From the IMG/VR virus record IMGVR_UViG_2529292912_000010: a DNA stretch of 35,529 nt; one strand, written 5' to 3'. This document shows positions 35,116-35,529 of the stretch, one piece after another. The stretch comes from a virus (lineage: Duplodnaviria > Heunggongvirae > Uroviricota > Caudoviricetes). Made by a program: the position numbers and the translations under genes. Within the stretch, counting starts at the first letter, position 1; every line of letters begins with the position of its first letter. The notes beneath the pieces were generated by a model. That model saw only the letters and a program-made list of their open reading frames with translations. It searched no databases and was not told the DNA's origin.

Positions 35116-35529
35116 TGAACCGCCCCGGGTTTCCTGGAGAGTGTTTTATCTGTGAACTCAGGCTGCCAGATCATCGTTTCCGATGGAAGCATAATAAGCT
35201 TTTTCTGCTTCTGCCGGAGGAGTATGGCCCAGCCTTTCCAGCAATCGTCGATTGTTATACCAGTCCACCCACGTGAGTGTGGCCAGTTCCACTTCTGCAC
35301 GGTTTTTCCAGCTCTTACGGTGTATTACCTCCGCTTTGTAAAGACCATTGATGCTCTCCGCCATCGCGTTGTCATACGAGTCGCCTGTACTTCCTGTTGA
35401 TGCCAGTAATCCGGCTTCCTTAAGCCGCTGTGTGTAGGCCAGCGATACATACTGAGAACCTTTATCACTGTGATGGACCGTGCCGGACGGTCGACGGGCC
35501 CATAACGCCTGCTCCAGTGCATCCAGCAC
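35116..35529 (-). mobile_element. IS3-family insertion sequence, partial (runs off the window edge); terminus at about 35116
   Basis: Terminal inverted repeat beginning TGAACCGCCCCGGG at 35116, followed inward by the 3' end of a DDE transposase gene on the minus strand. Confidence 0.7.
35158..35529 (-). CDS. IS3-family transposase (OrfB, DDE integrase core), C-terminal 123-aa fragment truncated by the window edge
   Basis: Retroviral-integrase-like core end motifs: HSDKGSQY, and DNA(M)AES containing the catalytic Glu. Confidence 0.8.
   Translation of the reverse strand: MLDALEQALWARRPSGTVHHSDKGSQYVSLAYTQRLKEAGLLASTGSTGDSYDNAMAESINGLYKAEVIHRKSWKNRAEVELATLTWVDWYNNRRLLERLGHTPPAEAEKAYYASIGNDDLAA

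Follow-up and report, generated by a model that had tools for sequence, protein, structure and literature searches.

The last 414 bp of the stretch of viral DNA analysed here (35,529 nt, Caudoviricetes record IMGVR_UViG_2529292912_000010, hereafter the window) are the right end of IS629, an insertion sequence (IS) of the IS3 family. Comparison with a near-identical complete chromosome (CP057729.1) indicates that a complete and probably active IS629 copy has very probably been inserted, simply and with nothing deleted, at the stop codon of hokD in a Qin-like prophage, and that the relBE-hokD module of the prophage is most likely intact. The element and the type of insertion are ordinary and already known.

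The IS629 end in the window

Members of the IS3 family produce a DDE transposase of the rve type, OrfAB, by programmed -1 frameshifting and move by a copy-out/paste-in route via a circular intermediate, with target duplications of 3-4 bp. The parts of such an element that lie in the window are the following.

35116..35529, minus strand: right-repeat (IRR)-proximal 414 bp of IS629 (IS3 family); the element runs past the window edge and totals 1310 bp
35116..35140, plus strand: terminal inverted repeat IRR, 25 nt, TGAACCGCCCCGGGTTTCCTGGAGA; pairs with the left repeat (IRL) TGAACCGCCCCGGGAATCCTGGAGA, 92% complementary, in full copies
35158..35529, minus strand: 3' end of the transposase gene orfB, C-terminal 123 aa, ending ...YYASIGNDDLAA; stop TGA at 35158-35160; Pfam rve, rve_2 and rve_3

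Position 35116 is the first base of the terminal repeat, which has a single match in the window when up to three mismatches are allowed and 0 matches in 100 shuffles. The sequence to its left is 100% identical to the Qin prophage of Escherichia coli K-12 up to 35115, and the boundary of the IS is therefore exact to the base; it is not a chance match. The open reading frame (ORF) at 35158-35529 on the minus strand (123 aa) carries matches to the integrase-core domains rve, rve_2 and rve_3 and shares its reading frame with the intact orfB of the complete copy in chromosome CP057729.1, the first 414 bp of which are identical to the window fragment. Identity as IS629 was judged against copies annotated 'IS629 ORF1/ORF2' on S. 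flexneri pCP301, which the fragment matches at 414 of 414 positions and where the copy has a matching 25-nt inverted repeat at its far end; identity is likewise 100% to thousands of E. coli and Shigella IS copies. A sequence-only reading of the window had placed the end of an IS3-family element at about 35116, marked by a terminal repeat and the 3' end of a transposase gene. The rve domains, the repeat and the identity to annotated IS629 bear this out, with the end exactly at 35116 and the orfB 3' end on the minus strand.

The hokD stop codon and its former 3' untranslated region

The flank to the left of the element retains the following features.

35113..35115, strand not applicable: left copy of the target-site duplication, CTT, 3 bp; the IS lies between two CTT triplets at the CP057729.1 and OkiPb01713 loci
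35018..35115, minus strand: former hokD 3' untranslated region (3'UTR), structured RNA plus intrinsic terminator; 100% identical to K-12 downstream of hokD
34646..34897, minus strand: rem, the intact prophage gene nearest to the insertion on its window side; annotated rem (WP_000980994.1) at the matching position in K-12 and 1368KP

From 34600 to 35115 the identity of the window to the Qin prophage of K-12 is 100%; it breaks off after 35115, a point that in K-12 falls two bases into the hokD stop codon. The K-12 sequence around this point, ...gggtctCTT followed by ACTCCTCAGG, is the reverse complement of ...CCT GAG GAG TAA G, and the uninterrupted (empty) site reads gggtctCTTactcctc. On the hokD strand CTT becomes AAG and, in the uninterrupted sequence, takes in the final two bases of the TAA with which hokD stops. 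The placement of the insertion by the sequence-only reading, in the early-side region of a Qin-like prophage, thus agrees with the left flank, and the site falls between rem and the hok/rel module.

Leftward of the insertion and all on the minus strand follow a terminator, a promoter-like site, rem, an ORF of 92 aa, ydfU (DUF968) and the Q antiterminator gene. The terminator, found by a terminator scan between the IS and rem, is that of the hokD/relBE operon (stem 35045-35028, minus strand, plus a T-run), and the promoter-like site (35005-34976, minus strand, from a promoter scan) is associated with rem. The 98 nt downstream of hokD are predicted to form a stable fold of three hairpins, the terminator being the last element (MFE -38.9 kcal/mol, z = -2.9). 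With IS629 abutting the hokD TAA, the intact hok ORF is separated from its 3' mRNA elements, and this 3'UTR now lies 1313 bp (the IS plus one CTT) away from hokD.

Part of the former 3'UTR (35024-35105, minus strand) gave an isrK-like Rfam match (RF01394; E = 0.004) of 25.1 bits against a gathering threshold of 50 bits for isrK; the likeness is limited to the 5' hairpin and the terminator, and an isrK identity was rejected as sub-threshold. The region (35018-35115, minus strand) lies directly upstream of rem, as IsrK lies before orf45-anrP in Salmonella Gifsy-1.

Beyond the window edge

An exact-match protein search with a spurious ORF of 77 aa across the junction (34959-35192, minus strand) returned two NCBI records; the 71-aa and 113-aa versions of the junction ORF had no exact-protein record. 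One is the draft contig AIGB01000016.1 (GCA_000249715.2), evidently the origin of the window, to which it shows 100% identity throughout the 10,571 bp compared; it stops 260 bp past the window, still within IS629, of which 674 bp are present. CP057729.1, a complete chromosome of 4.83 Mb, shows 0 substitutions relative to the window over 10.5 kb, with three 1-base homopolymer indels.

The IS629 copy in CP057729.1 measures 1310 bp and is bounded by the IRR TGAACCGCCCCGGGTTTCCTGGAGA and the IRL TGAACCGCCCCGGGAATCCTGGAGA (25 nt, 92% complementary), that is, by TG...CA inverted repeats as the IS3 family requires, the IRR being visible in the window and the IRL in CP057729.1. CTT flanks the element on both sides as a 3-bp target-site duplication. 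Both reading frames, orfA in frame 0 and orfB in frame -1, are uninterrupted. The product annotated for them, a frameshift-fusion transposase of 404 aa, carries HTH_Tnp_1, HTH_21 and rve domains, and the frameshift pseudoknot ALIL of Rfam is found at 120 bits (threshold 50). The copy is 98.85% identical to that of pCP301, and its transposase is co-directional with relB-relE-hokD. Rightward extension in search of the other IS end and a target-site duplication had been suggested by the sequence-only reading, as had a check of the inverted repeat against the far end of the same element; in CP057729.1 the matching IRL and the second CTT are both present.

Directly after the right-hand CTT come hokD, relE and relB, all of which translate to the K-12 proteins, and the order past IS629 (hokD, relE, relB, ydfV, flxA) is intact. 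The right junction reads GAG GAG TAA G and then TGAACC...; since the duplicated triplet is AAG on the hokD strand, hokD retains its own stop codon. In-silico removal of the IS and one CTT from CP057729.1 yields 1200/1200 identity to both K-12 and strain 1368KP, and this exact restoration of the K-12 sequence points to a simple insertion without deletion. The IS-free prophage of 1368KP is itself 99.95% identical to the window over 23 kb, with rem, hokD, relE, relB, ydfV and flxA contiguous.

These data bear on the suggestion of the sequence-only reading that the IS, through deletion or inactivation of neighbouring genes, could explain the missing hok/rel-type genes. In CP057729.1 the insertion is a clean 1310 bp between CTT and CTT with hokD-relE-relB intact beyond it. 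The same reading had proposed a comparison with IS-free Qin-like prophages, naming flanks contiguous with uninterrupted prophage sequence as evidence against it; the excised flanks are contiguous in just this way, and the deletion idea therefore fails by that reading's own standard. What hides the hok/rel genes is simply the position of the window edge and, 260 bp further on, of the draft contig end, both of which fall within the IS. Short-read assembly is expected to break contigs at a multicopy IS, and such a break is not in itself evidence of rearrangement. The right-hand side in the strain of AIGB01000016.1, the contig of which breaks inside the IS, is inferred from the near-identical genome to be the same as in CP057729.1.

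Insertions at and around hokD

The junction is rare, occurring in one of 5,426 complete E. coli genomes and in a handful of assemblies in the protein collection. The exact junction with the IS variant of the window was absent from the RefSeq complete E. coli genomes, and the exact junction 26-mer had 0 matches in GTDB species-representative genomes and JGI metagenomes. When homologues of the junction ORF were sought among proteins, most matches were the junction ORFs of IS629 copies inserted elsewhere, at unrelated positions; the search also returned hokD alleles bearing frameshifts or deletions, and revealed no further element type at the same nucleotide. In the alleles P0004, P0006, P0013 and P0018 from public assemblies, the N-terminus of Hok is joined to the 3'UTR frame by a frameshift or an internal deletion; these are natural hokD-inactivating variants at the hokD locus. 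P0003, an ENA-derived ORF, starts with ...GDVYKRQ, which is the translation of the Tn5/Nextera mosaic-end adapter, here fused to the hokD locus as a library artefact in a public assembly.

The 1.5-kb hokD-relBE-ydfV segment has received repeated IS629-family insertions across different lineages. Copies of IS629/IS1203 lie inside relE in strain F41, splitting the gene, about 400 bp upstream of hokD in strain JNE21-003, and between relB and ydfV in strain 05_3471. At the hokD stop itself, E. coli OkiPb01713 (NZ_AP042682.1) carries an IS629 subtype (locus 5517-6826) that is 95.6% identical, with 58 differences spread along the element. In its position, to the nucleotide, in its orientation and in its CTT duplication it agrees with the insertion described here. 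Identity in the immediate flanks is 99-100%, and the prophage differs past hokD, where it is without relBE and has an HNH endonuclease and an AAA ATPase.

This coincidence raises the question of whether the position is non-random, the hokD stop being either a preferred IS629 target or a place where insertions are favoured by selection for separating the toxin ORF and its 3'UTR, which we regard as unlikely. Two subtypes of IS629 at one nucleotide, in one orientation and with one CTT, are a weak hint of site preference. In K-12, Pedersen and Gerdes (1999) reportedly described IS150 at hokA and IS186 at hokC and hokE, in each case just downstream of the chromosomal gene. IS150, also of the IS3 family, recurrently inserts next to hok/sok loci in experimental evolution (PMC5419217). 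Against this, the subtypes at the site number two, and the OkiPb01713 coincidence fits one old insertion followed by gene conversion between IS copies as readily as it fits two independent insertions. The rarity of the junction among complete genomes also argues against a favoured target, as do the very few assemblies that contain it in a collection of 15 billion proteins. The flank holds no repeat-like mimic of a target: IS911-style insertion directed by an inverted repeat was considered and rejected, as local alignment of the flank to the repeat gave a score of 13 at best, a value reached by 47% of random sites taken from that prophage. The selective benefit is unclear, since hokD of the K-12 type forms part of the relBE operon and is not known to have a mok/sok control of its own. 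Published analysis found no sequence-specific target for IS629 and located most copies in prophages, including 62% of the IS629 copies of O157 (PMC3271280).

Deletion and truncation as alternatives to a simple insertion

One alternative holds that, in the strain of the window, hok/rel was removed or inactivated by a deletion or rearrangement that occurred next to the IS along with its insertion. Its appeal is that the draft contig ends inside the IS and leaves the right side of that strain unseen, that IS629 copies are able to mediate deletions, and that in other strains relE or the promoter region of relB is indeed disrupted by IS629-family copies. E. coli O74:H39, a relative that shares the junction, has moreover lost 1.69 kb on the rem/Q side. 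We nevertheless consider this reading very unlikely, given that CP057729.1, with no substitution over 10.5 kb and three homopolymer indels, has a clean 3-bp duplication and an intact hokD-relE-relB, that excision in silico restores a perfect K-12 sequence, and that a break inside a multicopy IS is what short-read assembly produces.

In the O74:H39 contig (JAUKJG010000057.1), which ends 52 bp into the IS, the deleted segment corresponds to 33136-34826 of the window and extends from inside the Q antiterminator gene to inside rem. It shows that the prophage of a lineage with this junction is not immutable.

A solo or truncated remnant of IS629, a dead fragment of one end, is an extremely improbable reading of these bases. 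In its favour, the window contains just 414 bp of the element and the draft contig 674 bp, and truncated IS629 copies have been reported in E. coli (PMC3271280). Against it, all 674 bp agree with a full copy (259/261 in the alignment of the 260-bp extension) and the near-identical CP057729.1 has a complete 1310-bp element with intact ORFs and pseudoknot.

Comparison with known systems and the rest of the prophage

The element shares with IS629 (isoforms IS1203 and IS3411; Shigella, E. coli O157/O26) the length of 1310 bp, taken from CP057729.1, the 25-nt TG...CA repeats, orfA/orfB, ALIL and the 3-bp duplication. It shows no difference from IS629 in itself, whereas the insertion site, the hokD stop of a Qin-like prophage, is rare and known from few assemblies. 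The insertions in the 3' flanks of K-12 hok genes likewise place an IS directly 3' of an intact hok ORF and cut off the 3' regulatory or terminator region. They differ from the present case in that here the element is IS629, sits exactly at the stop and adjoins a hokD in the relBE operon rather than a stand-alone hok/sok locus. The IS-free Qin-like prophages of K-12 and 1368KP have flanks 99.95-100% identical to those described here and the same gene order (Q (ydfT), ydfU, the 92-aa ORF, rem, hokD, relE, relB, ydfV, flxA), but are without the 1313 bp (the IS and one CTT) between rem and hokD.

Elsewhere in the window, an Rfam match to the IS009 sRNA (221 bits) lies at 3343-3541 on the minus strand, near the tail-fibre end of the prophage. 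Two 5'UTRs of the cspA thermoregulator type, at 31318-31710 and 28425-28809 (both minus strand; 159 and 116 bits), coincide with the positions of the cold-shock genes cspB and cspI in the near-identical 1368KP prophage.

Proposed consequences and implications

In the arrangement that we favour, a simple insertion, IS629 would have transposed into a Qin-like lambdoid prophage exactly at the hokD stop, in the same orientation as the relB-relE-hokD operon. The CTT duplication (AAG on the hokD strand) would regenerate the TAA, so that the HokD, RelE and RelB reading frames probably stay intact past the window. Transcripts of relBE-hokD would no longer end in the structured 3'UTR and terminator native to them but would continue into IS629, while the displaced terminator (35045-35028, minus strand), now downstream of the IS, should halt read-out from the element before rem, ydfU and Q.

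The apparent absence of hok/rel is thus an effect of the window and contig edge rather than biology, and the value of the finding lies chiefly in correct annotation. The IS629 copy is also a portable repeat, which breaks short-read assemblies and can seed later rearrangements. That the border between the hokD stop and its 3'UTR is a preferred landing site for IS629-type elements, or that insertions there are repeatedly selected for detaching the Hok ORF from a structured, isrK-like 3'UTR and terminator, appears unlikely; if true, it would extend to the hokD of a prophage what has been observed in K-12, where IS elements lie just 3' of hok genes. Two subtypes at one nucleotide beside a toxin gene may offer a small lead for the study of IS target choice and of the decay of chromosomal hok genes.
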